Part shown: piece after piece, positions 26,956-64,000 of the stretch | Position numbering within the stretch: the first letter of the stretch is position 1 | Layout of the letters: each line of letters begins with the position of its first letter | Assembly (NCBI GenBank): GCA_039630085.1 | Contig: JBCNVM010000005.1 | Span: 36,587-100,586 of the forward strand | Origin: Candidatus Caldarchaeales archaeon | Lineage (GTDB): Archaea > Thermoproteota > Nitrososphaeria_A > Caldarchaeales > Calditenuaceae | Direction: 5' to 3' | Length of the DNA: 64,000 nt | The notes under the pieces: model-generated | What the model saw: only the letters and a program-made list of their open reading frames with translations | Told to the model about the DNA's origin: nothing | The model's database searches: none | Position numbers and translations under genes: made by a program

Positions 26956-27885
26956 TCAGACCCATTTCCACCTGCCGTATACGAGGTAGAGTAGCGCGGC
27001 CCCGGTGTGCATCCTGTTCTCGGCCTGGTCGATCATCACGGAGCTGGGGCCGTCGGCGACCTCGGCCTCGACCTCCTCGCCCCTCTTCACCGGCATGCAG
27101 TGCATGAACCTCGCTCCGGGCTTGGCACCAGCCATGAGCTCCCTCGTGACCCTGTAGCGTGGTATGAAGGCCTTCAGCCTCCGCTCCCTCTCGGCCTCGA
27201 AGCCCATCGAGATGAAGACGTCGGTGTAGACGAAGTCCGCGCCCTTCACGGCCTCGGCTGGGTCGTCGGTGAACGTGAGCTCCGAGCCGGAAGCCCTGGC
27301 AGCCTCGAGGGCCCTTCTCCTCTCCTCCTCCGGCACCCAGTAACCCTCAGGGGAGGCGATCGCGAAGTCGACGCCAGTCAGGGCGCAGGCCTGCATCAGG
27401 GAGGTGGCTACGTTGTTCCCGTCGCCGACGAAGGCCACCTTGACCCCCTTGAAGGTCCCCTTCAGCTCGAAGACCGTCATCAGGTCGGCGAGGGCCTGGC
27501 AGGGGTGATGCCTGTCGGAGAGGGCGTTGATCACCGGGACCCTCGAGCTCGCGGCCAGCTCCCTCAGAGTGGCGTGGCTGTAGACCCTGCAGACGAGCCC
27601 GTCGACGTACCTCGAGAGGACCCTGCCGACGTCGCTGACCGGCTCGCCCCTCGCGAGCTGCAGCTCCGCGGAGGAGATGTAGTCGAACCTCCCCCCCAGC
27701 CTGCTGATGGCCGACGTGAAAGAGACCCGCGTCCTCGTCGAGGGCTTCTCGAAGATCAGGCCGATCGTCCTCCCCTTGAGCCCAGCGCTCGGGTACCCCT
27801 CCGACTTGAAACGCACAGCGGTCCTGACCGCCTCGACGAATTCATCCCTCGAGAGGTCCAGGACCTCGAGGAAGTGCCTCGTCAT
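26956..27885 (-). CDS. argF: Ornithine carbamoyltransferase
   Basis: FEKPSTRTRVSF, HPCQ, GDGNNV, TDVFISMG, HCMP, QAENR. Confidence 0.96.
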   Translation of the reverse strand: MTRHFLEVLDLSRDEFVEAVRTAVRFKSEGYPSAGLKGRTIGLIFEKPSTRTRVSFTSAISRLGGRFDYISSAELQLARGEPVSDVGRVLSRYVDGLVCRVYSHATLRELAASSRVPVINALSDRHHPCQALADLMTVFELKGTFKGVKVAFVGDGNNVATSLMQACALTGVDFAIASPEGYWVPEEERRRALEAARASGSELTFTDDPAEAVKGADFVYTDVFISMGFEAERERRLKAFIPRYRVTRELMAGAKPGARFMHCMPVKRGEEVEAEVADGPSSVMIDQAENRMHTGAALLYLVYGRWKWV

Positions 27886-28001: not shown

Positions 28002-28190
28002 TTGGCGGTCCAGCTCAGGGCCAGGAGCGGGCTGAGGCCCCTTACCGTGAGGCTGCCGGAGGCGTACCTCGACGCGCTGGAGGAGCTGGTCGACTCGGGG
28101 GTGTACGCGAGCGTCGCCGAGGCCGTCCGCATGGCGATAAGGGACCTGATCTCGAGGGAGGGTTTCCTGATCAGGTCGGAGCGGAGATGA
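28002..28190 (+). CDS. Ribbon-helix-helix (CopG/Arc/MetJ) regulator
   Basis: LTVRLPE.YLDALEELVDSG.Y.S.AEAVR.AIRDL. Confidence 0.88.
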   Translation: MAVQLRARSGLRPLTVRLPEAYLDALEELVDSGVYASVAEAVRMAIRDLISREGFLIRSERR

Positions 28191-28609
28191 GCCGGAGCCT
28201 GATGGTCGAGGAGGTCGAGGACGCGCTGCTCGGGATCGCGGAGAGGCTGAAGGGTGAGGGCCTGATCGCGGCCGTGGCGAGGGATCTCACGCCGCCCGTC
28301 TACCCGAGGGTCTACGTCCTCCTGAGGGAGGTGCACCTCGCGAGAACCACCGTCGCCGGGAGCGGGCTCAACGTCGACCAGGAGTACGAGGTCGTCGTGG
28401 AGAGCTCAGGGCCCGACGCAGCGCTCCAGGCTTCAGAGGCCGTCAGGGCGGCGGTAAGGTTCGCGGAGCTCGTCCTTTCCGAGGGGCCGAGGGAGGTCGG
28501 CGGCCTCCCCCTCGAGCTATTCCCCTACGAGCTGAGGGTGGTCGATGTCCTCGAGTCGGGGAGGAGGTCGACGGTCGTCTCGGTGCGCGTGAGGGCCCGC
28601 GTTGGCTGA
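28187..28609 (+). CDS. Putative viral tail terminator/completion protein
   Basis: 140 aa from ATG 28187 (ATGA overlap with the RHH gene); helix, YP.V.V, beta hairpin, helix, beta hairpin layout typical of tail-completion proteins; viral context. The function is inference. Confidence 0.5.
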   Translation: MSRSLMVEEVEDALLGIAERLKGEGLIAAVARDLTPPVYPRVYVLLREVHLARTTVAGSGLNVDQEYEVVVESSGPDAALQASEAVRAAVRFAELVLSEGPREVGGLPLELFPYELRVVDVLESGRRSTVVSVRVRARVG

Positions 28610-29054
28610 CCCCTTCCTCGGGCCTACCTCCCAGTAGCCTCATCAGCGCCAGAGAGAGCGCCGTCACGGCGACGCCCAAAGGAAGGAGGATCGGAGAGGC
28701 CGTCCTGAAGTCCCTCCTCGTGGCGACCAGCATCGCGACGCCGACGCCGTAGGCCGTGCCGAGCGCTGCGACCGCCCTCCTGAAGATGATGGACCTCTCG
28801 GTATAGGCGAGTCCTGCAGCGGCCGCGAGGGCCATCGAGCCCGCTGCCAGAAGGGCCAGCGACTCCGCGGACCTCCCCCTCACTCTGATCTCGTACTCCT
28901 CGAAGTGGACCGGCAGGTCGCCGAAGAGAGGGACGTGGAGCTCCCTCACGACGGTCCTCCTGACGAGCTCCGACTCGGGCGAAGAGAGCATGAGCCCCCC
29001 TGCCAGCAGAACTAGGGCGGCGAACGCGAGCCCGACAATCAGCGCGGCCCTCAT
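28443..29054 (-). CDS. Membrane protein of the viral module
   Basis: About four TM segments; ATGA overlap with the upstream gene; the last ~55 aa are Pro/Arg-rich antisense run-on over 28187-28609. Confidence 0.6.
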   Translation of the reverse strand: MRAALIVGLAFAALVLLAGGLMLSSPESELVRRTVVRELHVPLFGDLPVHFEEYEIRVRGRSAESLALLAAGSMALAAAAGLAYTERSIIFRRAVAALGTAYGVGVAMLVATRRDFRTASPILLPLGVAVTALSLALMRLLGGRPEEGVSQRGPSRAPRRPSTSSPTRGHRPPSARRGIARGGGRRPPSAPRKGRAPRTLPPP

Positions 29055-29341
29055 CTCCCCGAGCCCCTCCGGGAAGCGACGAGGGCGCCCAGCAGGTCGT
29101 TCAGCAGCGTCACTGTCCCGCCTGTGAGGAGCATCTGCTCGAGGCGGAGGTCGTCGAGCTCCAGTCCCAAGTGCGCTGAAATCAGGCCGACCAGCGCTCC
29201 GAGGGCGACCGTCCTGAGGAACTTCCTCGGGGAGAACTCCTCCCGCCTCCTGGACTTGAGGTAGCCCGCGCCGGCGAAGACCGCTCCGTAGAGCGCGCCC
29301 AGCAGCGCAGAGGAGAGGCCCAGCTGGACCTCATGCTCCAA
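29051..29341 (-). CDS. Putative holin-like small membrane protein
   Basis: 96 aa; TM - GYLK...E.F..RK...T...GA.VG - TM, basic C-tail; viral context. Confidence 0.5.
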   Translation of the reverse strand: MEHEVQLGLSSALLGALYGAVFAGAGYLKSRRREEFSPRKFLRTVALGALVGLISAHLGLELDDLRLEQMLLTGGTVTLLNDLLGALVASRRGSGR

Positions 29342-29537
29342 CGGCGTACCACCTCTTGGTCCTCGGAGAAAGCCTGACGGAGCTCCCGCAGCATGGGCAC
29401 CTGAGCGAGCCCCTCCTGTCCTCGCAGCACCTCAGGGGGAGCGCGACGTCGCAGACCGCACACCACGCGTACCCGAGCCCGTACCTCACCCTCCTCGACG
29501 TGCCGTCGATCGAGACGCAGGCCGACCTGCACCTCAC
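29331..29537 (-). CDS. Small Cys-rich zinc-finger protein
   Basis: C...C, RY..G...CAVC, CPCCG..VR..PR in 68 aa; overlaps both neighbours. Confidence 0.7.
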   Translation of the reverse strand: MRCRSACVSIDGTSRRVRYGLGYAWCAVCDVALPLRCCEDRRGSLRCPCCGSSVRLSPRTKRWYAVGA

Positions 29538-29770
29538 CTTCCACCCGACCTCCTCTCAGCCCTCCTGACCATCTCGCTCAGCGAGAGGCCGCCGCCGAAG
29601 CTCCCGACGAGCGTCGCCTCTATCGCCCTGCCGGCCCAGAGGAGCGCCACGAAGGCCACGGCAAGGAAGATCGCCAAGGCCCCGAGCCAGTCCTCGACGC
29701 CGAAGCTGACCGTGACTCCTTTCTGGCTCCTCCTCACCGTCAGCCTCGCCTCCCTCCTCATCTCACTCAC
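29534..29770 (-). CDS. Small membrane protein
   Basis: 78 aa with a central TM segment; overlaps both neighbours. Confidence 0.55.
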   Translation of the reverse strand: MSEMRREARLTVRRSQKGVTVSFGVEDWLGALAIFLAVAFVALLWAGRAIEATLVGSFGGGLSLSEMVRRAERRSGGR

Positions 29771-30089
29771 CCGTCAGGAGCACCGTGCCCCTCGACCGGA
29801 CGTCCTCCGAGAGGGCCGCGAGCTCCTCCCTCACGGCTCTCAGCAGGGCCGCGGCCTCCTCCCTCCTCGTCGACCTCCACGCGAGAAAGAGGAGCGCGGC
29901 GATGGTGCTGGAGAGCTTCCTGATCCTCATCGGCGGGTCTGCGAGCGGGACCCGGTGACCGTGGGACTGGAGGGTCGCGTCGATCAGGGACTCAGCCTCT
30001 TCTAAGAACACCGCCAGCAGCTGATCGAGTGACGCGTCGTCCTCTTGAAGTCCGACCTTGACCCTCACGTCCCGGATCGAGCCGTACAT
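29763..30089 (-). CDS. Putative head-to-tail adaptor (Mu gp36 / HK97 gp6 / SPP1 gp15-like)
   Basis: MY.S..DV ... D..L...LEEA...ID..L......PL..PP..I...S..IAA pattern, 108 aa, all-helical. Confidence 0.7.
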   Translation of the reverse strand: MYGSIRDVRVKVGLQEDDASLDQLLAVFLEEAESLIDATLQSHGHRVPLADPPMRIRKLSSTIAALLFLAWRSTRREEAAALLRAVREELAALSEDVRSRGTVLLTGE

Positions 30090-30212
30090 CGAACTTCGGG
30101 AACTCAGGTAACGGATTAGCCCTCGCTATGTTGAAAGATTGTTTTCAAAACTCAACCTCACCAAAATTCAAAAAACAGCTAGCCAGTAAACCGGGGCTTA
30201 TCTGAAGGGGCC
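30090..30212. promoter_or_regulatory. AT-rich divergent promoter region of the viral module with inverted repeat TTGAAA-N6-TTTCAA (30131-30148)
   Basis: Clearly AT-rich stretch between two divergent operons; the palindrome is read directly from the sequence. Confidence 0.6.
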
Positions 30213-30557
30213 GTGGCCAGCAGGAGGGTGAGGGAGCTCCTGAAGGGAGTGAGGGAGGGGGAGCTGGTTGTGGTGAAGTGGTGGGACGCGTGCACTTGGA
30301 GGGACGTCCCGAACTCGGTCAGGAACCCGGAGAAGGTCGACAGCCCCATCTACTCGATCGGTGCGTTCGGAGGACTGGTCAGGGGAGAGAGGATCGAGTA
30401 CCTGCGGCTGGTGGTGGAGAGGAAGCCCGAGACGAGCGACATCACGTACATCCCCGTCCAGCTGGTCGAGAGCGTCGGGAGGGAGAGGTTCAGTGCACCG
30501 AAGAAGGGCGTGAGGAACTACCTCGACAACGTGAGGTACTACGGTGACGGGCGTTGA
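30213..30557 (+). CDS. Hypothetical protein (V.W.DA motif), first gene of the terminase operon
   Basis: GELVVVKWWDA ... SIG.F ... IP..LV; host-like codons; stop overlaps the next start. Confidence 0.7.
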   Translation: MASRRVRELLKGVREGELVVVKWWDACTWRDVPNSVRNPEKVDSPIYSIGAFGGLVRGERIEYLRLVVERKPETSDITYIPVQLVESVGRERFSAPKKGVRNYLDNVRYYGDGR

Positions 30558-30868
30558 GAGGCTCCCTGAGCCGGAGGGTCACGAGGGTCGAGAGGGGGCT
30601 CGCGAGGATCGCGAGGGCCGTTGAGAGGAGGTCGCAGGAGGGGCAGGCGCCGTCGGACTGGAGGCGGCTCGAGGAGGAGGTCTGGTCGCTGGTCCAGGAG
30701 GCCTGCTCGCTTTCACAGGCCGCGAAGTCCAAGGGCGACATCAGGACTTCCCAGGCCTGCGTTGGAATGGCACTGAGGGGGCTGGCGCTGCTGGGGAGGC
30801 TGAGGAGGGAACGGGAGCTGGAGGAGATCAGGGCCCTTGTCGAGCGGATGGAGGGCGGGTCGGGGTGA
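30554..30868 (+). CDS. Putative terminase small subunit (helical)
   Basis: 104-aa helical/coiled-coil ORF directly upstream of and overlapping terL; positional inference only. Confidence 0.45.
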   Translation: MRGSLSRRVTRVERGLARIARAVERRSQEGQAPSDWRRLEEEVWSLVQEACSLSQAAKSKGDIRTSQACVGMALRGLALLGRLRRERELEEIRALVERMEGGSG

Positions 30869-32178
30869 GTCCCGCGGTCCCGAGGGAGCTGAGGAGGCGG
30901 GTCGAGGCTCTGAGGAGATTGAGGGAGTCGGGGCGAGTCCGCGTCCCAGAGGACCCGCTCGAGTTCGCGGTCGGGTTCCTCTCTTGGAGGCCCTTCCCCT
31001 ATCAGGCCGACCTCCTCACGGACGCGAGCCCGAGGATCTGCGTCTGTGCCGCGAGGCAGGTGGGGAAGTCGACGACTGCGGCCGCGAAGGTCCTCCACCT
31101 CTGCCTGACCAAGCCGGGCTCGAGGGCGCTGGTGGTCGCGCCGACGTTGAGGCAGAGCGCGCTCTTCCTCGAGAGGGTCGAGGATCACCTGAGGTCCTCC
31201 AGGGCAGGGCCCTCGCTGGTCGCGGGACGGGACAGGACCTCGGTCAGGTTCGTCAACGGCAGCAGGGTCGTCGCGCTTCCCTCGGGGAGGTTCGGCCACA
31301 CGATAAGGGGCTTCACCGCGGACCTCGTCGTTGTCGACGAAGCGGCCTTCGTCCCGGAGGAGGTGATAACGCAGGCCTTGATGCCTCAGGTCGCGACGAC
31401 CGGCGGGAGCTTCCTGATGATCAGCACGCCCTGGGACAAGAACCACGTCTTCTACAGGTGCTTCACCAGCGGCGACTGGAGCGTGAAGAGGTGGCCCGTG
31501 AGCGTCTGCCCCCTGATCCCCAGCGGGTTCATCGAGGAGCAGAGGAGGTTGATCGGCGACGAGGCGTTCAGGAGGGAGTACCTCGCGGAGTTCGTCGAGG
31601 ACGCCGCGTCTTTCTTCTCGGCGGACCTGATCAGGAGGTGCGTGGACGACTACGAGGCCCGGCCCAGCGGCGACACTGAGCTGACCGCGGGCTTCGACTG
31701 GGGAGGCAGGTCGGACCCAAACGCGCTGGTCGTCGTCGAGCGGAGGGCCGAAGTCCTCAGGGTTGTCCACGTCGAGTCCTGGATGAGCGACAGCTACACC
31801 TACTCGGCCTCGAGGGTCGCGAGGCTCCAGAGGGAGATGGGGTTCAGGGTCGTGCTGGAGGAGATCGGCGCGGGTCTCCTGATCAGGGAGCAGCTGGAGT
31901 CCCACGGAGTCGAGGTGATCGGAGTGGGTCCAGCGGATATCGAGAGGACGATGCTGCTGCTGAGGGTCCTGATGGAGTCGGGGAGGCTGAGGACGTACCT
32001 CGACAACAGGCTGATCGACTCGCTGCGGGCTGTCAAGCACGAGAGGACGAAGGGAGGAAGGGTGAGGTTCTACCACGAGCCGGGGACCCACGACGACCTC
32101 GCCAGGGCGCTCGCGCTGGCCGCGTGGGGAGCGACAGTCTCGGGCTCCGGAGCGACCGCCTCGCTCTTGGAGGCATGA
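30865..32178 (+). CDS. terL: Terminase large subunit
   Basis: Q motif PFPYQ, Walker A ARQVGKST, F.NGS...ALP, IRG, Walker B VVVDEAAF, ISTP, FRREYLAEF, RNase H-like GFDWG...D and HDD...ALALA. Confidence 0.92.
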   Translation: MSPAVPRELRRRVEALRRLRESGRVRVPEDPLEFAVGFLSWRPFPYQADLLTDASPRICVCAARQVGKSTTAAAKVLHLCLTKPGSRALVVAPTLRQSALFLERVEDHLRSSRAGPSLVAGRDRTSVRFVNGSRVVALPSGRFGHTIRGFTADLVVVDEAAFVPEEVITQALMPQVATTGGSFLMISTPWDKNHVFYRCFTSGDWSVKRWPVSVCPLIPSGFIEEQRRLIGDEAFRREYLAEFVEDAASFFSADLIRRCVDDYEARPSGDTELTAGFDWGGRSDPNALVVVERRAEVLRVVHVESWMSDSYTYSASRVARLQREMGFRVVLEEIGAGLLIREQLESHGVEVIGVGPADIERTMLLLRVLMESGRLRTYLDNRLIDSLRAVKHERTKGGRVRFYHEPGTHDDLARALALAAWGATVSGSGATASLLEA

Positions 32179-33644
32179 AGTTCCAGGTCAGGGATCCGGT
32201 TGAGCTGGAGCAGAGGCCGAGGAGGGCATTTAGGCTCTCGAAGTCCTTCGAGACTTCCGCGCCGCGGACCAGGCGCGTGCTAGACGTTCACGACGCCTTC
32301 GGGATCGGGCTGGACGGAAGGAGGCGGGTGATCTACAGGGACCTAGTCGTAGACGTGGACCCGGGGGACGTCGTCTTCGTGACCGGCGAGAGCGGCGGAG
32401 GCAAGTCCCTGATCCTGAGGGACCTCGCGGAAAAGCTTCGGGACGTCGAGGCCTTCAGGCCGGTCGTCGACCTGAAGGAGATCGAGGCGAAGCCTAGGGA
32501 GCTCGTGATCGAGGGCGTAGGGAGGGACACGAAGGAGGCGATCGGGCTGCTCTCTTCAGTGGGGCTCGGCGAGGCCTTCGTCTTCCTGAGGAGGTTCAGG
32601 GAGCTGAGCGACGGCCAGAAGTTCCGTTACCTGCTCGCGAAGGCCCTCGACAGGAGGCCGAGGACCTTGGTTGCGGACGAGTTCTGCTCGAACCTCGACC
32701 GGACTACCGCGAAGGTCATCGCGTATCTGGTCCAGAGGAGGGCACGGGCCGAAGGGACGACGCTCGTCCTCGCGACGGCCCACGACGACCTGATCGAGGA
32801 CCTAGGTCCCGACGTGCTGGTGAGGAAGAGGTTCGGGTCCGCGGCCGAGGTCCTGTACGACCTTCCGCGCCCCGGGGCGTGCTCCCTGATGAGGGGGCTT
32901 GAGGTGTCCCGGGGGACGCTGAGGGACTACGAGGAGCTCGCGGAGTTCCACTACAGGGGCGGGAGGCCCGCGTACGTCGAGGCGGTCTTCGCGGCCAGGA
33001 TCGGCGGCGAGCTGGCGGGCGTGATCGTCTATACGTCGGTCTACCCGGACCTGAAGGCGAGGAACGCGGCGCTCCCCTTCCTCAGGGACCTCAGGAGGAG
33101 GCTGGGGAGGGAGGGGTACGTCCGCTGGCTGAACGAGCACTTCACTAGGATCTCGAGGGTTGTGGTCCACCCGAAGTTCAGGGGAATAGGCTTGGGAGCG
33201 GAGCTGGTGAGGAGGACGATGCCGCTGACCGGAAAGGCCTACGTCGAGACGCTGGCGGTGATGGCGAGGTACAACCCGTTCTTCGAGAGGGCCGGGATGA
33301 AGAGGGTCGAGGTCGACCGGGACTTGCCGAGGGGCGTGAAGGCCGCGCTGGAGCTACTGGAGGGGCTGGGGGCCGACGACTTCGTTCTCAGGGACCGAAA
33401 GCTGTTCGTCGGGTGGTATAGTTCACTGAGGCCCGGAGAGAGGAGGGAGGTCAGGGAGGCCCTCAGGAGGGCGGTGGCCGGCTTCTTCCCGGTCCGGTCG
33501 CTCGACGCGCGGGAGGTCGCGGGGAGGCTGGCGAGGGCCCTCTCGCCGCCGGAGTACCTGATCTGGAGGAACCCGGAGATCGGCGCCGGGCTCCCGGAAC
33601 CGATTAGCCCTCGGCCTTCTTCTCCTCGGGGACGAGCTTCTTGA
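32175..33644 (+). CDS. ABC-type ATPase fused to a GNAT acetyltransferase (COG2401-like)
   Basis: GESGGGKS, LSDGQ, LVADEF, ATAHDD; then FHY and ISRVVVHPKFRGIGLG acetyl-CoA motif, MARYNPFFE.AG. ATG 32175 overlaps the terL stop. Confidence 0.88.
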   Translation: MKFQVRDPVELEQRPRRAFRLSKSFETSAPRTRRVLDVHDAFGIGLDGRRRVIYRDLVVDVDPGDVVFVTGESGGGKSLILRDLAEKLRDVEAFRPVVDLKEIEAKPRELVIEGVGRDTKEAIGLLSSVGLGEAFVFLRRFRELSDGQKFRYLLAKALDRRPRTLVADEFCSNLDRTTAKVIAYLVQRRARAEGTTLVLATAHDDLIEDLGPDVLVRKRFGSAAEVLYDLPRPGACSLMRGLEVSRGTLRDYEELAEFHYRGGRPAYVEAVFAARIGGELAGVIVYTSVYPDLKARNAALPFLRDLRRRLGREGYVRWLNEHFTRISRVVVHPKFRGIGLGAELVRRTMPLTGKAYVETLAVMARYNPFFERAGMKRVEVDRDLPRGVKAALELLEGLGADDFVLRDRKLFVGWYSSLRPGERREVREALRRAVAGFFPVRSLDAREVAGRLARALSPPEYLIWRNPEIGAGLPEPISPRPSSPRGRAS

Positions 33645-33810
33645 CGTCGGTCCAGCACTCGCCGAGCGCGGCCCCTCCCATCTTCTCCCAGACCCACGCT
33701 ATGAAGACGTTCCTCAGGACCTCGGCGTCGCTGCTCCCCATCTTGCCCTTCAGGTAAGAGAGGCAGCGGTACTGCTCGTCGGTCAGGGTGACGAGGACGT
33801 GCTTGGGCAT
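33604..33810 (-). CDS. Small RHH/CopG-like DNA-binding protein
   Basis: V.VTLT.EQ...L..LKG.MG.SDAEV.RN.F.AW. Confidence 0.7.
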   Translation of the reverse strand: MPKHVLVTLTDEQYRCLSYLKGKMGSSDAEVLRNVFIAWVWEKMGGAALGECWTDVKKLVPEEKKAEG

Positions 33811-33847
33811 TCCGCGATCACCTAATACCGCGCTAATAGTGCCGTAA

Positions 33848-34054
33848 TTAGTCTTTGTCGCCCGAGCTCCGACCTGAGTCGACGGGGGTGTCCCCTGCCA
33901 GCGACTCGAGCCGCTCCCTCAGCCTCCTCAGCTCGCTGACCCTGGGGTCGGTGCCCCTGAGGTCCTCCAGGCCCCTCAGGACCGCGTCGCGGACATCCGC
34001 CGATGGGCTGATCCTCTTGCGCCGCCTCAGCGTCGCGAGGAGCCTCCCCAGCAT
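33848..34054 (-). CDS. Hypothetical protein
   Basis: 68-aa ORF from ATG 34054 with host-like codons, filling the gap. Confidence 0.45.
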   Translation of the reverse strand: MLGRLLATLRRRKRISPSADVRDAVLRGLEDLRGTDPRVSELRRLRERLESLAGDTPVDSGRSSGDKD

Positions 34055-34162
34055 CGCGGTGACAGCAGAAGGGTCACGTATTATCGGTTCGGTGGGCCAG
34101 GAGCTTCGAGCCGTCCGGGGGAATACGCTTAATTCGGCCGGTCCGTCCGTGAAGTGGGAGCC

Positions 34163-35038
34163 TTGTGCAGGATGGTCGCGCTGAGGTTCCTCGGGAGGGC
34201 GAGGTCCCTGGCCGGCGAGCTGATCGACGCAGCCGTCGAGGCCTCCGCTAACGACCCGTACCTCGAGAGGTTGGTAGGCGACAGCAGGCACTGCCACGGC
34301 TACGGCTTCGCGCTGGCGAGGAGGGTGAAGGGCTCCTGGGAGGTGATGAGGGCGAGGTTCGACGCGGCGCCGCGGTTGACCGGCGACGAGGCCTGCGAGG
34401 CCAATCTTAAGGCCCTCGAGGAGGCCGCGGACGAGCTGAAGGCGCTCCTGAGGAGGGGGGAGGAGTTCGCCCTCATCCTTCACGGCAGGCGGACCGGGTC
34501 GGAGCCTCGGGGCGTTAACGCGGGGCACCCGTTCTCGGGCGAGGTGGTCCTTCAAGGGCATGAGGGCCCTGAGCTGTTCGAGGTCCTCCTCTCGCATAAC
34601 GGCGGCGTGAGGAAGTCCGATCTCGCGGCGCTGATCGGGCTCAGGGACCCGAGCGTCTACACCGATTCGCACGTCCTCCTGAAGTTCGTCCTCAGCAGGC
34701 TCGAGGGTAGGCCGGTCGGGGAACTCGTCGGGGGACTGAGGGACGCGGTCAGGGAAGCAGCCCCCTACGCCCTCGGGTCTCTGAACGCGCTCGCGATGTT
34801 CGTCGGCCAGTCGTCGGGCCCGTTCCTCTTCGCGGTCGGGTACGTCACGGCCAGAGAGGAAAGCAGGAGGGCCTACTTCGAGCCGGTTCTCGTGAAGGCC
34901 GACGGACTCTCGGGGTTCGTCTCGAGCACCGCGAGGGACGTCGCCGCGCGCAGGGGAGTCAGGGCCGAGTTCTCGTCGAGGGCCGAGAACTTCGTGGCGA
35001 TGTTAGACCCGAGCGAGGTCAGGACCGTAGAGGTCTGA
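34163..35038 (+). CDS. Class II (Ntn) glutamine amidotransferase-domain protein
   Basis: TTG start gives M-C-R-M with an N-terminal Cys; H..GYG, H.R, HPF, SHNG, TDS. Confidence 0.85.
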   Translation: MCRMVALRFLGRARSLAGELIDAAVEASANDPYLERLVGDSRHCHGYGFALARRVKGSWEVMRARFDAAPRLTGDEACEANLKALEEAADELKALLRRGEEFALILHGRRTGSEPRGVNAGHPFSGEVVLQGHEGPELFEVLLSHNGGVRKSDLAALIGLRDPSVYTDSHVLLKFVLSRLEGRPVGELVGGLRDAVREAAPYALGSLNALAMFVGQSSGPFLFAVGYVTAREESRRAYFEPVLVKADGLSGFVSSTARDVAARRGVRAEFSSRAENFVAMLDPSEVRTVEV

Positions 35039-41952: not shown

Positions 41953-42149
41953 TGTGCTGAGACGCATTAGGGACACGAGGGGCATCGCACTCAAAGACTG
42001 CAAAATAGTAATTCGAGGTCTCAGGTCATCAACGGTTACCGAGAGCACGCTGTGCTAGTTCGAGAGTAAGACTAAGCTGGCCACTACCTTTGTGACCTTT
42101 AATTCAGGGTCGATATTTACTTAACGAGTTAAGATGCGGCTGCAATCAT

Positions 42150-42350
42150 CACACTCGAAAGACACGAGCGCCTGAAATTGCTCGGTAGCCATGAGCGAAG
42201 GCTGTACGAATAGGGAAAACTCCCTCGTCGAGCTCATCAGCGAGGTCTACCCTAGACTCGCAAGCGTCAGAACTTCGGTCGCAGAAGCTTTCAGTTTACG
42301 AGTGAAAACGCCAATCTTTAGGGCCATTTTGTTCTCGTGCTTCACTGCAG
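42150..42350 (-). pseudogene. Possible degraded HEPN/DUF86 gene remnant
   Basis: A minus-strand frame reads ...DELDEGVFPIRTAFAHGYRAISGARVF (R-x4-H-x-Y), with no intact start; lower-GC region. Confidence 0.25.
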
Positions 42351-42409
42351 CTCAAATAGTGCTAATGAGGTCTCAATAATTGAGGACAAAAAATACATTA
42401 TCATACCTT

Positions 42410-43579
42410 TTAAAACGTTTGTAGTAATTTTAGTAATGTAATATTCCCTCGGATTGGCCCACTTCCCCGCAATCTTCTCGCCATGGCAAGATTATACGCG
42501 ATTAGCAGGACCAGAGCGACCGCAAGCGCTGCGATGATCAGAGTCAACGTCTGAGGGTCTTGTAGCAGCCCCTCGTCGCCGTCCCGTGCCCTCTCCGTGA
42601 CCGTCCGCGTGGTGGTGGCCGTTGTGGTAGTGGGCTCCCTCACCGTTGTGAACCTCGTCTCCACCGATGTGACCTCCTTCGTCGTTTCCATTACATACGT
42701 TGTGGTGACCGGGTTAACGACCGTCTCGGTTCGGGTCTGCGTCGTGGTCTGCTCCACTCGGGTCGTCACGGTGGTGGGAGGCAGAGTCGTGGTCACGTTG
42801 ACGTAGCGGATTACGGTCGTTGCGGGAAGCGTGGTGGTGACGGTCACGCTCCTGGTCTCGGTTGTTCCAGGGAGTCGGGTTGTCGTGGTGACTGTTGTGG
42901 TCACGGTGGCCGGCGGTGCCTCGTCGGAGCAGTAGATGGCCTCAATGAGGAGGCCGGTCGGACTGTCAGCGGGTATGTTCCGAACTACCACGGTCACGTT
43001 GTTTATCCCTGAACCCACAGGGAAGACCCACCATCCGGGCTGAGACGGCCATAGAGCGTACCCCGGTATGTTGATGCCGGTGTAGACGCCGTTCAGGTAG
43101 ACCCACCCCGGGTCGTCTGACCCTCCCCTCATGTAAATCCTGCCCGCCGAAGGTGCCACGAAGACGACGCTATAGGTGAAGTTGGTGTTCCCCGGAGCGG
43201 GGCTAGGCAGGTTGTTGACCGGCCTGTAGGGGCTTATCCACATCGCCCTCGAGCCCACCGGCGGGCCCGAGTGCCATGCGCCCGGAACAGGGTTCACGAC
43301 CCACGGTCTATCGAGTGTGCCGTCCGGCAACCTGACGACCCAATCCAAGGGCGTTGAGACGGGATGCTCCCTCGATCCCGCGGGCTTAGCCGCGAAGTTC
43401 AGCGAGCCGGTGCTCAGATCCATCATACACGCACACGTCTCGGGAGCCCTTGTGGTTGTGGTCACCTCCACTCTGCTCTGAGCGCTCACGGCCGCCATCT
43501 GGAAGACCGCAGGAATCAGCACAAGACCCAAGAGAGCCAACGCTAGGCAGAGTTTAACCGATCTTAGACCGAAACCCAT
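42410..43579 (-). CDS. Cell-surface protein: signal peptide, beta-sandwich domain, Thr-rich linker, C-terminal TM anchor
   Basis: Hydrophobic N-terminus, DD...VYLNG...G.N..V.V.N.....P.GL motif, about 110 aa Thr-rich stalk, TM near the end. Confidence 0.8.
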   Translation of the reverse strand: MGFGLRSVKLCLALALLGLVLIPAVFQMAAVSAQSRVEVTTTTRAPETCACMMDLSTGSLNFAAKPAGSREHPVSTPLDWVVRLPDGTLDRPWVVNPVPGAWHSGPPVGSRAMWISPYRPVNNLPSPAPGNTNFTYSVVFVAPSAGRIYMRGGSDDPGWVYLNGVYTGINIPGYALWPSQPGWWVFPVGSGINNVTVVVRNIPADSPTGLLIEAIYCSDEAPPATVTTTVTTTTRLPGTTETRSVTVTTTLPATTVIRYVNVTTTLPPTTVTTRVEQTTTQTRTETVVNPVTTTYVMETTKEVTSVETRFTTVREPTTTTATTTRTVTERARDGDEGLLQDPQTLTLIIAALAVALVLLIAYNLAMARRLRGSGPIRGNITLLKLLQTF

Positions 43580-43686
43580 TGAACGTTTGGCAAGAGCTCA
43601 CTATTTAAGTATAACCCCGAAGGGAGTTCCTCTATCTGTGCATGATGAAGTATAAGAACAGGCCAGCGGATCGTAAGATGCGGCGT

Positions 43687-43760
43687 GCCTGGGTAGTATA
43701 GCCAGGTTAGTATACCGGCCTGTCGAGCCGGTGACCCGGGTTCAAATCCCGGCCCAGGCG
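43687..43760 (+). tRNA. tRNA-Asp(GTC)
   Basis: Acceptor GCCTGGG/CCCAGGC, anticodon arm CCGGC-CTGTCGA-GCCGG, T arm GGTTCAAATCC; CCA not encoded. Confidence 0.97.
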
Positions 43761-43781
43761 TGAACCGAACCTGCCGTCGAC

Positions 43782-60942: not shown

Positions 60943-62104
60943 ACGCCCTCCCCTTCCTCAGGATCGCCTCGAGCTCCCTGCTCAGTATCGAGGCCGGGAT
61001 TTCGGGGAGCGTGATGTAGCTCCTCCTACCCCTGATCCCCTCGCTCTGGACCCTGATCCTGATGAAGCCTAGGTCCTCTAACTTCTGGAGGATCTCCCAG
61101 AACCTCGTGTAGGCCTTCGGCATCGCGCCGTTCTCCTCGCAGACCAGCGCGTAGAGCCTGTTGAGCTGGGAGGCGGTCACGGAGGGCGAGTCGTTCGATT
61201 GGAAGAACCTCGCGACCGCGAGGAGGACGAGCTTCTCGTGGAGCGAGAGGTAGTGGAGGCTCTCCCTCCTGATCGCGGGGTAGATGCTCGCGGCGGCCCT
61301 CCTGACATGCTCGGCGGTGACTCTCGGGGACCCGTCCCGCTCCGCGAACTTCCCTGCCCTCCAGAGGACCTCGATCGCGTACCTCGCGTCCCCCCTCTCC
61401 CCCGCCTGGTCGACGATCGCCTCGATCGCCTCCTCGGTCACGACGCCCTCGTAGAAGGCCTCCGAGGCCCTGAAGGCCACGATGTCCCTGAGCTGGCCCG
61501 CGGTATACTCGGAGAGGTGGACCGCGTTGGTGACGAACATCGTCCTGGTCCCTGCGTCGAAGACGTTCAGGCCTTCAAGCCCCCTCATGACCAGGAGCAG
61601 GGAGATCCTCGAACCCTCGGACCTCTCCTCCCCGATCCTCGCGAGGTAGTAGACCGCGTCTTGCTCCTCCCTGATCAGGACGTCGGCCTCGTCGAGCGTC
61701 AGGATCAGCGAAATCCCCTCCCTGTCGAGGTAGGTCGTGAGGTTGTGGAGGATCTCCTCGTTGGCCAGGCCCCTGGACGGAAGCCCGATCCCGAGGGACT
61801 CGATCGTCCTCTTGAGGACCGAGAAGAGGGTCCTGTGGATCCTGCAGTTGACGTGGACGTGCCTCAGGAGCGCCCCCGATTTCCTCGCGATCTCCTCTGC
61901 CTTCGCGCCGAAGAGCTTCGAGAGCGCGGTCTTCCCGGTCCCCGTCGGTCCCGTCAGGAGGGCCCTTACCTGGCCGGTCCTCCTCCCCGCGATGAAGGAC
62001 CCGAAGAGGGTGAGGAGGTGCTCGAGCTCGTCCTCCCTGTGCGGGAGCCTCGAGGGGACGTACTCGGGGGAGAGCCTGTCCTCGTCCCTGAAGACCCGGA
62101 CCAT
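60914..62104 (-). CDS. cdc6: Orc1/Cdc6 replication initiator
   Basis: VF.DE..LSPEYVP..LPHRE, GPTGTGKT, VNC, LDEAD, GDARYAI, C-terminal wHTH. The track start (62194) lies at the edge of a CRISPR repeat, so re-called at ATG 62104. Confidence 0.95.
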   Translation of the reverse strand: MVRVFRDEDRLSPEYVPSRLPHREDELEHLLTLFGSFIAGRRTGQVRALLTGPTGTGKTALSKLFGAKAEEIARKSGALLRHVHVNCRIHRTLFSVLKRTIESLGIGLPSRGLANEEILHNLTTYLDREGISLILTLDEADVLIREEQDAVYYLARIGEERSEGSRISLLLVMRGLEGLNVFDAGTRTMFVTNAVHLSEYTAGQLRDIVAFRASEAFYEGVVTEEAIEAIVDQAGERGDARYAIEVLWRAGKFAERDGSPRVTAEHVRRAAASIYPAIRRESLHYLSLHEKLVLLAVARFFQSNDSPSVTASQLNRLYALVCEENGAMPKAYTRFWEILQKLEDLGFIRIRVQSEGIRGRRSYITLPEIPASILSRELEAILRKGRAFTHGERDEP

Positions 62105-62168
62105 CCCGCTCTGCTCTGTAGTCGGGCCCTCGATAAAAGAGGTGGCGTCGAGGGTGAGCTGAAAGTGG

Positions 62169-63995
62169 ATTTCAAGCCTCTTCGTGAGGTTCAAACCCCG
62201 ATGCTCTCGCCGTCATTTTGATCTGGTAGCTCTTTCGATCCTCTTTGTGAGGTTCCGAGTTCTTCAGGGCATGGCAAGCGTTCCTGCAGGACCCGCTCTT
62301 TCAATCCTCTTCGTGAGGTTCCACGTCACCGTCGCAGGTACGGAATGTAAAGGGCAACTTTCAATCCTCTTCGTGAGGTTCGCGTTCGTGGTTAAGTATG
62401 ATGACGACTGATCGAGATATGTCTTTCAATCCTCTTCGTGAGGTTCGGTTTACCTACTTCAATACCAAGAACGAATCTCAAAGAACTTTCAATCCTCTTC
62501 GTGAGGTTCTCGAAAATTACGGACATTATTCTCCGAACGAGATAATAGTCTTTCAATCCTCTTCGTGAGGTTCAGAGAGCTATCATCCTTGATATTGGTG
62601 GCCGTTATGATGCTTTCAATCCTCTTCGTGAGGTTCTAATAATTTCGGGCCCAGTGCTGCAATCGGCATATTATATCTTTCAATCCTCTTCGTGAGGTTC
62701 CCTGCTTGAGGCGCGGGGTAGAGCGAAGAATGAATTCGTCTGCTTTCAATCCTCTTCGTGAGGTTCTCGCCGTGCGTGGGCCCTTCTGAGCGGGAAATTC
62801 CTCGCCTTTCAATCCTCTTCGTGAGGTTCGTGGTTCATGAAGAGACCGCTAATGGTAGCGGCGGTAGCTGCCTTTCAATCCTCTTCGTGAGGTTCCTTTG
62901 ACCTAGGCCGCGCCCTTCTCTCCTCGAGAGGCGCTCTTTCAATCCTCTTCGTGAGGTTCATTCAGGTGGAGGGAGGCATCATCGATGACGACCAGACTTT
63001 CAATCCTCTTCGTGAGGTTCTCGACGAATGGGGGAGATACATGATCGAGAACAACAGTTCCTTCTTTCAATCCTCTTCGTGAGGTTCCCATCTAATTTCG
63101 AGTTAACGCTCGACACGCCTCCTACTTTCAATCCTCTTCGTGAGGTTCGCGGTACCGGAAAAACCGGTTAGAATTCCTGAACGGTGGTGGCCCTTTCAAT
63201 CCTCTTCGTGAGGTTCCATGGATCTTCGATTATCAAGACAACACAGACTGTGCCCCTAACGTCCTTTCAATCCTCTTCGTGAGGTTCCCTAGCGGCTTCA
63301 TGCAAAATTGCCCCTGCACATGGACATCTTTCAATCCTCTTCGTGAGGTTCGCCTGATAATCATCTGGGTCGTGCTGTGGAGGTGAGATCTTTCAATCCT
63401 CTTCGTGAGGTTCCCGCGGTTCACGCCGCGGGCGCGCAACCCGTAAGCCCACGCTTTCAATCCTCTTCGTGAGGTTCTGCACGCGATTCCCAGACTACCT
63501 TCACTCCTCGTGGGCTTACTTTCAATCCTCTTCGTGAGGTTCATAGAAGTGCGCGATCGAGTCCCACGCGATCTCGCTCCTTTCAATCCTCTTCGTGAGG
63601 TTCTCAGTGACGATGGAAAATGATACTTCGCCCACTCCTCACCTGCTTTCAATCCTCTTCGTGAGGTTCGCGAACATGGCCCCCCTCGTGACTGCGATTT
63701 ATCTCATAAACGCTTTCAATCCTCTTCGTGAGGTTCGTAGGGGCGATGTGCGTGATATTCCATGCCGACCGTTACCTTTCAATCCTCTTCGTGAGGTTCT
63801 CGCATCGGCAAGCCGTTGTTTCGCCTGCCGATCGTCAGCGCTTTCAATCCTCTTCGTGAGGTTCCCCGGCCGTGGGGGCTATGGCGCAAAATTGTGTATA
63901 AACGTCTTTCAATACTCTTCGTGAGGTTCCATACTCGTCTTCGCCGTGATCGTCGCGTTCTACCCGGTTTACTTTCAATCCTCTTCGTGAGGTTC
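62169..63995 (-). CRISPR. CRISPR array, 24-bp repeat CTTTCAATCCTCTTCGTGAGGTTC (+), 29 repeats and 28 complete spacers in the window, truncated at the right edge
   Basis: Repeats counted from 62169 to 63972; spacers about 36-47 nt. The two leftmost repeats are degenerate (trailer end), so the array is transcribed on the minus strand as GAACCTCACGAAGAGGATTGAAAG. One internal variant at 63906. No cas genes in the window. Confidence 0.99.
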
Positions 63996-64000
63996 CATGC

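Follow-up and report, generated by a model that had tools for sequence, protein, structure and literature searches.

We analyzed a 64,000-nt window of the genome of a Candidatus Caldarchaeales archaeon (assembly GCA_039630085.1, contig JBCNVM010000005.1, positions 36,587-100,586 of the forward strand), in which a module of tailed-virus genes, referred to here as locus A, is located at positions 28002-33810. Locus A consists of 12 tightly packed, intact open reading frames (ORFs) between argF (26956-27885, - strand) and a run of host genes comprising p294, a metallo-beta-lactamase-fold gene, argC and SMC. Its genes specify a large terminase subunit (TerL), an ABC-type ATPase fused to a GNAT acetyltransferase, two connector parts (a head-tail adaptor and a tail terminator) and one regulator of the ribbon-helix-helix (RHH) type; of the other seven products, four are small membrane or zinc proteins and three are unknown. 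The source genome (G000) is a metagenome assembly of 66 contigs, 89.9% complete, and was compared with the six other members of a set from the genus Ca. Calditenuis (Calditenuaceae, Caldarchaeales; G000-G006, n=7, all metagenome assemblies), of which G001 is the most contiguous (3 contigs). Head and tail genes were found on two other contigs of G000, at loci B and C, and the three loci together may well constitute a domesticated virus particle system resembling a gene transfer agent (GTA).

The rightward half of locus A carries a candidate packaging operon on the + strand. Its first gene, p114 (30213..30557), is of virus type; it gave no match in Pfam, PHROG or PDB, its nearest Atlas clusters were viral hypothetical proteins (score 0.91), and it adjoins TerL also in another genus (g4) and in a Bathyarchaeota contig. 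The ratio of nonsynonymous to synonymous substitution rates (dN/dS) for p114 was 0.085. Throughout, dN/dS was calculated pairwise by the Nei-Gojobori method, with G000-G003 as the main pair (dS 0.13-0.59) and G002-G005 and G004-G006 as additional independent pairs; comparisons across the two deep clades of the genus were discounted, dS there being near saturation. The second gene, p104 (30554..30868), overlaps the TerL start and encodes a helical protein that is confined to the genus, gave no significant family or PDB match and is a small-terminase candidate by position only. TerL (30865..32178; dN/dS 0.113) comprises an ATPase and an RNaseH-like nuclease, matched PF03237 (E=2.2e-15) and PF17289 (E=4.4e-8), both above the cut-offs, and phrog_2 (E=4e-44), and is the sole PF03237 match in the genome. 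Its catalytic motifs, described as intact in the initial annotation, are indeed so: Walker A (RQxGKS/T), Walker B (D158 E159), TPW and the invariant acidic nuclease residues D278/D411 were present in 11/11 orthologues.

The last gene of the operon encodes the ABC-GNAT fusion (32175..33644, + strand; 32175 is the probable start, and the ORF list places it at 32124). Matches to PF00005 (E=1.6e-8) and PF00583 (E=2.1e-5) verified the fusion, and a profile search against PDB sequences returned generic ABC domains only. Homologues were detected in 75 phage records, the best showing 33-38% identity over about 70% of the query, and in the one record inspected, that of Pseudomonas phage hairong, the ABC and GNAT-like proteins are encoded by separate genes, with ParB-like nuclease genes on one side and the large terminase on the other. 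Linkage of the ABC-GNAT gene to TerL or the portal gene persists in three genera, including g2 and g4. Considering that the phage homologues are situated near terminases and that the linkage to TerL or portal has lasted, the ABC-GNAT protein appears to be of viral origin and tied to packaging. The arrangement resembles that of Nickievirus and related ~110-kb phages, which also carry ABC ATPase and GNAT-like genes beside the large terminase; however, the phages have them as two or three unfused genes, located just upstream of the terminase and next to ParB-like nuclease genes, whereas here one fused gene lies downstream of TerL. An ABC-ATPase/GNAT protein seems to be a recurrent companion of terminases in phages and here.

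The left half of locus A begins with RHH1 (28002..28190, + strand), a CopG-type regulator with a PF01402 match above the cut-off (E=1e-6) and a dN/dS of 0.085, whose stop overlaps the start of the tail terminator gene (28187..28609, + strand). The terminator, a 140-aa protein, was modelled with AlphaFold2 (AF2) in a gpU-like fold (pLDDT 88.6, pTM 0.84), and the model was compared with PDB using Foldseek. The 11 PDB matches at E<=1e-3 were all phage neck or terminator chains (TM up to 0.64), in agreement with the earlier designation of this gene as tail-terminator-like; lower ranks included lambda gpU (rank 16, E=1.5e-3) and the RcGTA virion chain 6tba (rank 46, E=6.6e-3). A Pfam match was weak and found in 1/10 orthologues. 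In two other genera (G007 and G026), the terminator gene is directly upstream of the tube gene. The adaptor p108 (29763..30089, - strand) is a connector of the Mu Gp36 or gp6-like type (PF07030, E=1.8e-4). This assignment, too, had been proposed at the outset and gained support, as PF07030 (Phage_Mu_Gp36) matched 9/9 orthologues (best E=8.8e-5) and PF05135 (Phage_connect_1) matched 3/9; in genus g4 the adaptor is the first gene of a connector-tube-tape-measure operon.

Between the terminator and the adaptor lie four small genes on the - strand. tm203 (28443..29054) is predicted to cross the membrane several times and has an Arg/Pro-rich tail; the 3' end of the gene shares 167 nt with the terminator gene. 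It matched no Pfam or PHROG family and has the highest dN/dS of the module (0.41). Its homologues adjoin terminator or TerL genes in G007 and G026, and it may have a role in egress. tm96 (29051..29341; dN/dS 0.20), earlier labelled holin-like, is a small protein that is a holin candidate by position and predicted membrane helices only; its Pfam matches were all sub-threshold. Zn68 (29331..29537) is a Cys-rich, zinc-ribbon-like protein, judged so by the Cys pairs in its translation, and matched no Pfam family. The fourth, p78 (29534..29770; dN/dS 0.175), is small, has one hydrophobic helix and gave no Pfam or PHROG match. At the opposite end of the module, p68 ('RHH2'; 33604..33810, - strand), which resembles an RHH protein by eye, forms the right edge of the conserved block and is the most conserved gene of the module (86-100% identity in 6/6 other genomes; dN/dS 0 against G003).

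Several architectural claims of the initial annotation were examined. No internal stops occur across locus A, the 4-base start/stop overlaps at 28187, 29051, 29534, 30554, 30865 and 32175 are real, and locus A itself contains no integrase, tRNA, portal, capsid or tube gene, all as had been reported. The similarity to host genes in GC and codon style, previously judged by eye, was borne out by measurement: the G+C content at third codon positions (GC3) was 0.88 in the module versus 0.91 in host genes, and relative synonymous codon usage (RSCU) of the module correlated with that of the host at r=0.991, the control comparison of one half of the host genes with the other half giving r=0.987. The two divergent operons are arranged around an AT-rich spacer (30090..30212; 123 nt, GC 0.46), likewise as described, which may act as a promoter region. 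No operator motif was shared by the sequences preceding the three loci, the best k-mers being present in no more than 57%, 50% and 40% of the sequences of the three sets. Of the RHH regulators placed at both ends of the module, the left one (RHH1) is supported by PF01402, whereas the right one (33604-33810) has no Pfam support. Two boundary assignments had to be revised. The conserved block stops at 33810 and not at 34054, and the gene at 34154-35038, taken to be a GATase, gave no GATase match. A 68-aa ORF at 33848-34054 (- strand) accompanies the right host flank and is kept in just 3/6 other genomes of the genus; outside the module as it is, it showed a weak match to an Rv0623-like antitoxin/transcription factor (E=0.006). 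Elsewhere in the window, GC falls to 0.52-0.54 at 42001-43000 and 62001-64000, compared with about 0.65 in the remainder, and ARAGORN detected a sole tRNA, tRNA-Asp at 43686-43761.

The initial annotation had proposed that the missing virion genes be sought at other loci lacking an integrase, and such loci of this genome do contain portal, capsid-like, protease-like, scaffold, tube and tape-measure genes. Locus B (G000:C5:15888-23496) was found through one sub-threshold Pfam portal match on another contig in a whole-assembly search. It contains genes for a tape measure, a neck protein, a 103-aa protein, a tail tube, a small RHH-like protein, a portal, p346, a scaffold-like protein and a capsid-like protein, and another small gene. 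The tape measure matched PHROG tape-measure families down to E=1e-11, the neck protein is HK97-gp10-like (PF04883, E=1.1e-9), the tube matched PF18906 (E=1e-21) and the scaffold-like protein matched phrog_673 (E=6e-5). The portal match to PF04860 (E=1.2e-5) is below the cut-off in G000, and 7/11 orthologues match this family (best E=6.6e-7). For the capsid, several individually weak lines agree: PHROG major-head matches at E=1.8e-4 and 3.9e-3, PF05065 matches in 3/9 orthologues (best E=6.3e-5), and, among 16 database homologues, PF05065 in 7/16 and PF25209 in 9/16. A Foldseek search with a poor AF2 model of the capsid gave a best E of 4.8e-3, with HK97-type capsids or encapsulins making up all the matches listed. 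The whole-genome search with PF05065 gave no match, and profile searches against PDB sequences yielded nothing useful for the capsid, p346, p114 or p104. Two small conserved genes of locus B are possible local regulators, one (L029:11266-11460, - strand) weakly matching RHH_1 (E=0.083), the other (L029:15321-15497, + strand) overlapping the capsid stop and also kept behind the capsid gene in g4. In G005, a single open frame of 269 aa (L035:15022-15831) covers both the 103-aa protein and the gp10-like neck protein, which have separate genes in the other genomes. Locus B is flanked by LigT, copper ATPase and cytochrome bd-like genes, and it adjoins LigT/Cu-ATPase in 5/6 other genomes of the genus; the sixth, G001, retains only a truncated tape-measure gene.

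Locus C (G000:C1:130420-133868) consists of p652, which showed a weak PHROG match to 'tail protein', and two further genes. In other genera, a gene of 620-660 aa follows the tape measure, and its homologue in G000 is p652, so locus C probably supplies tail-tip genes. It is flanked by amino-acid permease, Ogg and Tmk genes and adjoins the same CBS gene in the 4/6 other genus genomes where it was found. The dS of p652 was 0.74 versus 0.18-0.28 in its flanks. ARAGORN detected no tRNA at loci A, B or C, and a tRNA-like gene was seen only beside locus C, about 215 nt downstream (L061:12085-12185, + strand). This gene, which ARAGORN missed, has a long variable arm and a 20-nt insertion, and scored 29 bits, below gathering, against the Rfam tRNA-Sec model. 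An apparent partial duplicate of its 5' part lies about 100 nt upstream, near L061:11945-11990, and the pair may be a trace of the integration of locus C.

In G000, each of the three loci occupies a different contig and has host genes on its flanks, and in the 3-contig genome G001, locus A is on one contig and B and C are not on that contig. A temperate provirus would be contiguous, bounded by att sites and equipped with an integrase; here, three loci are parted by host genes. No match to the integrase family PF00589 was obtained in G000 (89.9% complete), while a control search matched in 14/14 genomes, and no replication gene was found in loci A, B or C. Conservation at the argF position, one of the checks that had been suggested, proved complete, with all 12 locus-A genes present in 7/7 genomes of the genus; including G000, locus A was present in 7/7, locus B in 6/7 and locus C in 5/7. 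Congruence of the TerL tree with the host tree had also been named as a check. Maximum likelihood trees of TerL, concatenated locus A, concatenated locus B, argF and Cu-ATPase+LigT all shared the same topology (5/5; branch supports 76-100). As for selection, dN/dS between G000 and G003 was 0-0.41 (median 0.19) for 20/20 genes of loci A and B, and 0.065-0.357 (median 0.16) for ten flank genes, with TerL at 0.11, portal at 0.13, capsid at 0.10, tube at 0.20 and tape measure at 0.27; the G002-G005 and G004-G006 pairs gave the same range. Contig depth was flat over the module and flank, but one run may be the source of the assembly and is not independent. In three DNA contig sets, no trustworthy excision joint was found; the one joint lay inside the module and had a 24-letter side.

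Tracts of 91-96% nucleotide identity with sharp edges, against a background of 77-83%, were observed in pairwise comparisons. One of about 5.5 kb (L016:10001-15500 versus L017, that is, G006 versus G004) spans mid-TerL, ABC-GNAT, p68, p294 and the metallo-beta-lactamase-fold gene, and a second (L041:1001-2500 versus L042) is at least 1.5 kb; overall, such tracts between lineages measured 0.5-5.5 kb. Their identity and edges indicate recent homologous recombination between species-level lineages.

Related gene sets occur outside the genus in different arrangements. In g4, the operon of TerL and ABC-GNAT forms one continuous block with the adaptor and the entire tail operon, and the head module lies about 10 kb past the last tail gene with host-like genes between them. 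In g2 (G007), nearly all genes fall within 14 kb. In Ca. Terraquivivens (family f3), a head module of four genes lies within a conserved host gene order in 4/4 further loci compared, and in G026, a member of this genus, TerL and tail genes are 90 kb from the head module. One species of this genus carries stops in TerL, portal and capsid. A scan of IMG/VR with the capsid profile retrieved 2 distant loci at 23% identity. Distant relatives in Bathyarchaeota contigs and the two IMG/VR contigs are possibly real viruses. A second TerL type, with 27-31% identity, was observed in other genera (G024:C1:594171-598689, G021:C2:2225-6734, G009:C14:17838-22544 and others), with a p652-like gene of 38-51% identity 1-3 kb upstream of it. 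This type appears to represent a different family of virus-derived elements, in which the p652-like protein is better conserved than the terminase.

GTAs are reportedly recognized by the features set out by Lang, Zhaxybayeva and Beatty in 2012, which include particle production, packaging of random host DNA and its delivery to recipient cells, and what was found here corresponds to the genomic ones among them: the head, packaging and tail genes are intact, with weak assignments for the tail tip and protease, integration, excision and replication genes are lacking, the position is fixed and inheritance vertical across the species of the genus, and purifying selection operates at the level of host genes. 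The gene transfer agent RcGTA of Rhodobacter capsulatus and those of other alphaproteobacteria consist of siphovirus-type genes at several loci, without integration or replication genes, and are vertically inherited under purifying selection with a host-like composition. The Ca. Calditenuis loci are alike in all of these respects, but the host is archaeal (Caldarchaeales), sequence relationship is undetectable beyond common folds, TerL stands apart here whereas in RcGTA it shares the main cluster with portal and capsid, and an ABC-GNAT gene is part of the packaging operon here. The VTA of Methanococcus voltae and PBSX of Bacillus subtilis are defective tailed-virus particles that package host DNA, and PBSX is encoded by one contiguous locus. 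For these, particles have been demonstrated experimentally, while the system described here is scattered and, as in the comparison with RcGTA, known from its genes. To our knowledge, GTAs have been established by experiment in archaea only for a methanogen, with genes that are poorly defined.

The combination of intact genes, scattered loci and host-like inheritance points to a virus tamed into a GTA-like particle. The interpretation that we favor, with moderate confidence, is that loci A, B and C form a domesticated, multi-locus, siphovirus-type particle system that descends from an archaeal tailed virus, is GTA-like and is seen here through genes alone. A GTA-like or otherwise co-opted virion machinery had been the original proposal, and each computational check proposed with it came out in favor. 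In the proposed mechanism, the loci would be switched on in a fraction of cells. Locus A would provide the packaging operon (p114, p104, TerL and ABC-GNAT), the adaptor, the tail terminator and local regulators, and its small membrane/zinc cassette might serve in release; locus B would provide the portal, protease-like protein, scaffold, capsid, tube, neck and tape measure, and locus C probably the tail tip. Procapsids would assemble on the portal, TerL would package DNA by a headful mechanism, the adaptor and terminator would join head to tail, and particles would be released. Because the genes, about 17 kb in total, are at distant loci and lack replication and integration functions, such a particle could not transport its own genome, and its cargo would be host DNA. 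A bolder version, which we offer tentatively and regard as possible but short of probable, is that a true multi-locus GTA operates in Ca. Calditenuis and, through independent or ancient origin, in Ca. Terraquivivens, and that its packaging operon includes the ABC-ATPase/GNAT protein and its activity explains the kilobase-scale recombination tracts.

A number of observations weigh against domestication as a functional particle. G001 retains the complete set of 12 genes at locus A but has lost seven genes of locus B, portal, capsid and tube among them, and its tape measure is reduced to residues 188-526. This loss of B with retention of A means that the system is dispensable or that locus A is useful alone; the deletion itself looks recent, since the residual tape-measure ORF is still open with a dN/dS of about 0.22. 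Outside the genus, the portal gene of G007 contains 1 TAG and its capsid gene was not found, G020 has stops in TerL (6), portal (1) and capsid (1), and G023 holds only a TerL fragment. Strong capsid-profile matches in the order-wide scan were limited to 14/76 genomes and 3/15 genera, and vertical descent is supported within the genus only. In locus B, the AF2 model of the capsid was poor (pLDDT 49.9), matches to PF05709 (distal tail) and PF04586 (S78 protease) were absent from whole-genome Pfam searches, and, because the homologues of p346 (346 aa) carry PF27290 only or nothing, an Atlas lead to prohead proteases is the sole source of its 'protease' label. Locus C, the least secure of the three, is variable, with an apparent frameshift of p652 in G003 and a divergent C-terminus in G006, its GC3 is lower (0.67-0.77), and p652 is equally close to the copy beside the second TerL type and to the copy behind the tape measure in G007. 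This pattern fits an exchangeable receptor-binding module, and locus C could alternatively be a relic of another element.

The same domesticated particle could be used to kill rather than to transfer genes, as a PBSX-type or tailocin-like particle that packages host DNA incidentally and makes no productive gene delivery. Its gene set would be the same as that of a GTA, the fast-evolving, allele-swapped tail-tip locus, to judge from p652 dS, suits target recognition in an arms race, and killer particles are named as an option for such archaeal elements in the part of Abby et al. 2018 (PMC5797428) available to us. Sequence cannot separate killing from transfer; the tail proteins showed no toxin or lysin domain, and we consider the killer function unlikely. 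A different explanation is that the loci are immobilized, functionless fragments of an old provirus that look intact through slow decay or through recombination with related viruses. The loss of locus B in G001, the stops in G007 and G020, the p652 frameshift in G003 and the patchy distribution in the order would all be expected of such fragments, as would the outcome of a search for RNA runs carrying the locus, which returned none. But some 20 reading frames have remained intact in six species-level genomes, dN/dS is like that of housekeeping genes in three independent pairs, the trees are congruent, amelioration is complete, and the IMG/VR scan retrieved only two distant relatives, at 23% capsid identity. 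Functionless remnants are accordingly an improbable account of these loci.

Domestication as a particle system can also be set against the idea that locus A works alone, for example as a DNA-processing or anti-virus module built on the TerL nuclease/ATPase and ABC-GNAT. G001 is the genome that speaks for it, having all 12 genes at normal lengths without locus B, with pairwise dN/dS values involving G001 still at 0.06-0.37. The adaptor and tail terminator, however, have no known role where head and tail are lacking, the deletion in G001 looks recent, and PADLOC returned generic ATPase matches only (mad3, E=3e-11, and mad8), with 8/10 proteins giving no match, so that an independent function of locus A seems very unlikely. 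Least probable of all, and scarcely credible, is a live temperate virus whose splitting is an assembly artefact. That all genomes are metagenome assemblies, with G000 in 66 contigs, leaves some room for it, but the same two-sided host flanks recur at each locus in several independent assemblies, no integrase was found, contig depth is flat, and a single source contig spans the junction of host flank and module, the run concerned being maybe that of the source assembly and so not independent.

Elements of related origin have been reported in archaea. Nvie-Pro1, NCAV2-Pro1 and CalSub-Pro are Caudovirales-derived elements of Thaumarchaeota and Aigarchaeota that, according to the portions of the reports at hand, have head-tail genes without att, integrase or replication genes, and for which a domestication 'akin to GTAs' was raised as a possibility (Krupovic et al. 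2019, PMC6563490; Abby et al. 2018, PMC5797428). They share with the Ca. Calditenuis system the archaeal morphogenesis genes and the lack of att, integrase and replication genes. They differ in being single loci around terL, as far as those portions describe them, whereas three loci are conserved across a genus here; nor do those portions contain the multi-genome synteny, dN/dS or tree congruence presented here. The idea of a GTA in Nitrososphaerota has, in the same excerpts, hitherto been a remark on single loci (PMC6563490, PMC5797428). Balbay et al. 2023 (PMC10547907) described 'prophage regions' in metagenome-assembled genomes (MAGs) of Caldarchaeales, including a Ca. Calditenuis species, and took them for Mu-like prophages with auxiliary metabolic genes, in the sections accessible to us. 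These regions are probably the same kind of loci, with terminase, portal, capsid and tail genes, but they are interpreted there as prophages, whereas in our comparison the adjoining genes belong to the host and are syntenic, and the viral genes are scattered. An RNA 2',3'-cyclic phosphodiesterase is listed among the provirus genes in those sections (PMC10547907). A LigT-type gene (L029:7261-7842) is a conserved host flank of locus B and is still in place in G001 after the loss of B, indicating that some reported auxiliary genes may be host flanks. In the literature searched, no split or genus-conserved system was described and no report joined Caldarchaeales with gene transfer agents; the supplements of PMC10547907 and PMC6563490 may list some of the genes. 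Judged against the accessible parts of these papers, the split, genus-conserved layout is new, while archaeal prophage regions and GTA-like speculation on contiguous elements were already known.

These data provide a concrete list of about 23 genes in three loci, together with comparative evidence of host-level selection, in two genera, and they make the hypothesis directly testable in hot-spring samples or enrichments. They also call for caution, because the 'prophage regions with auxiliary metabolic genes' of Caldarchaeales MAGs may be domesticated modules with ordinary host flanks. If the GTA hypothesis is true, this would be the first GTA in the Thermoproteati (TACK archaea) and the first in thermophiles.

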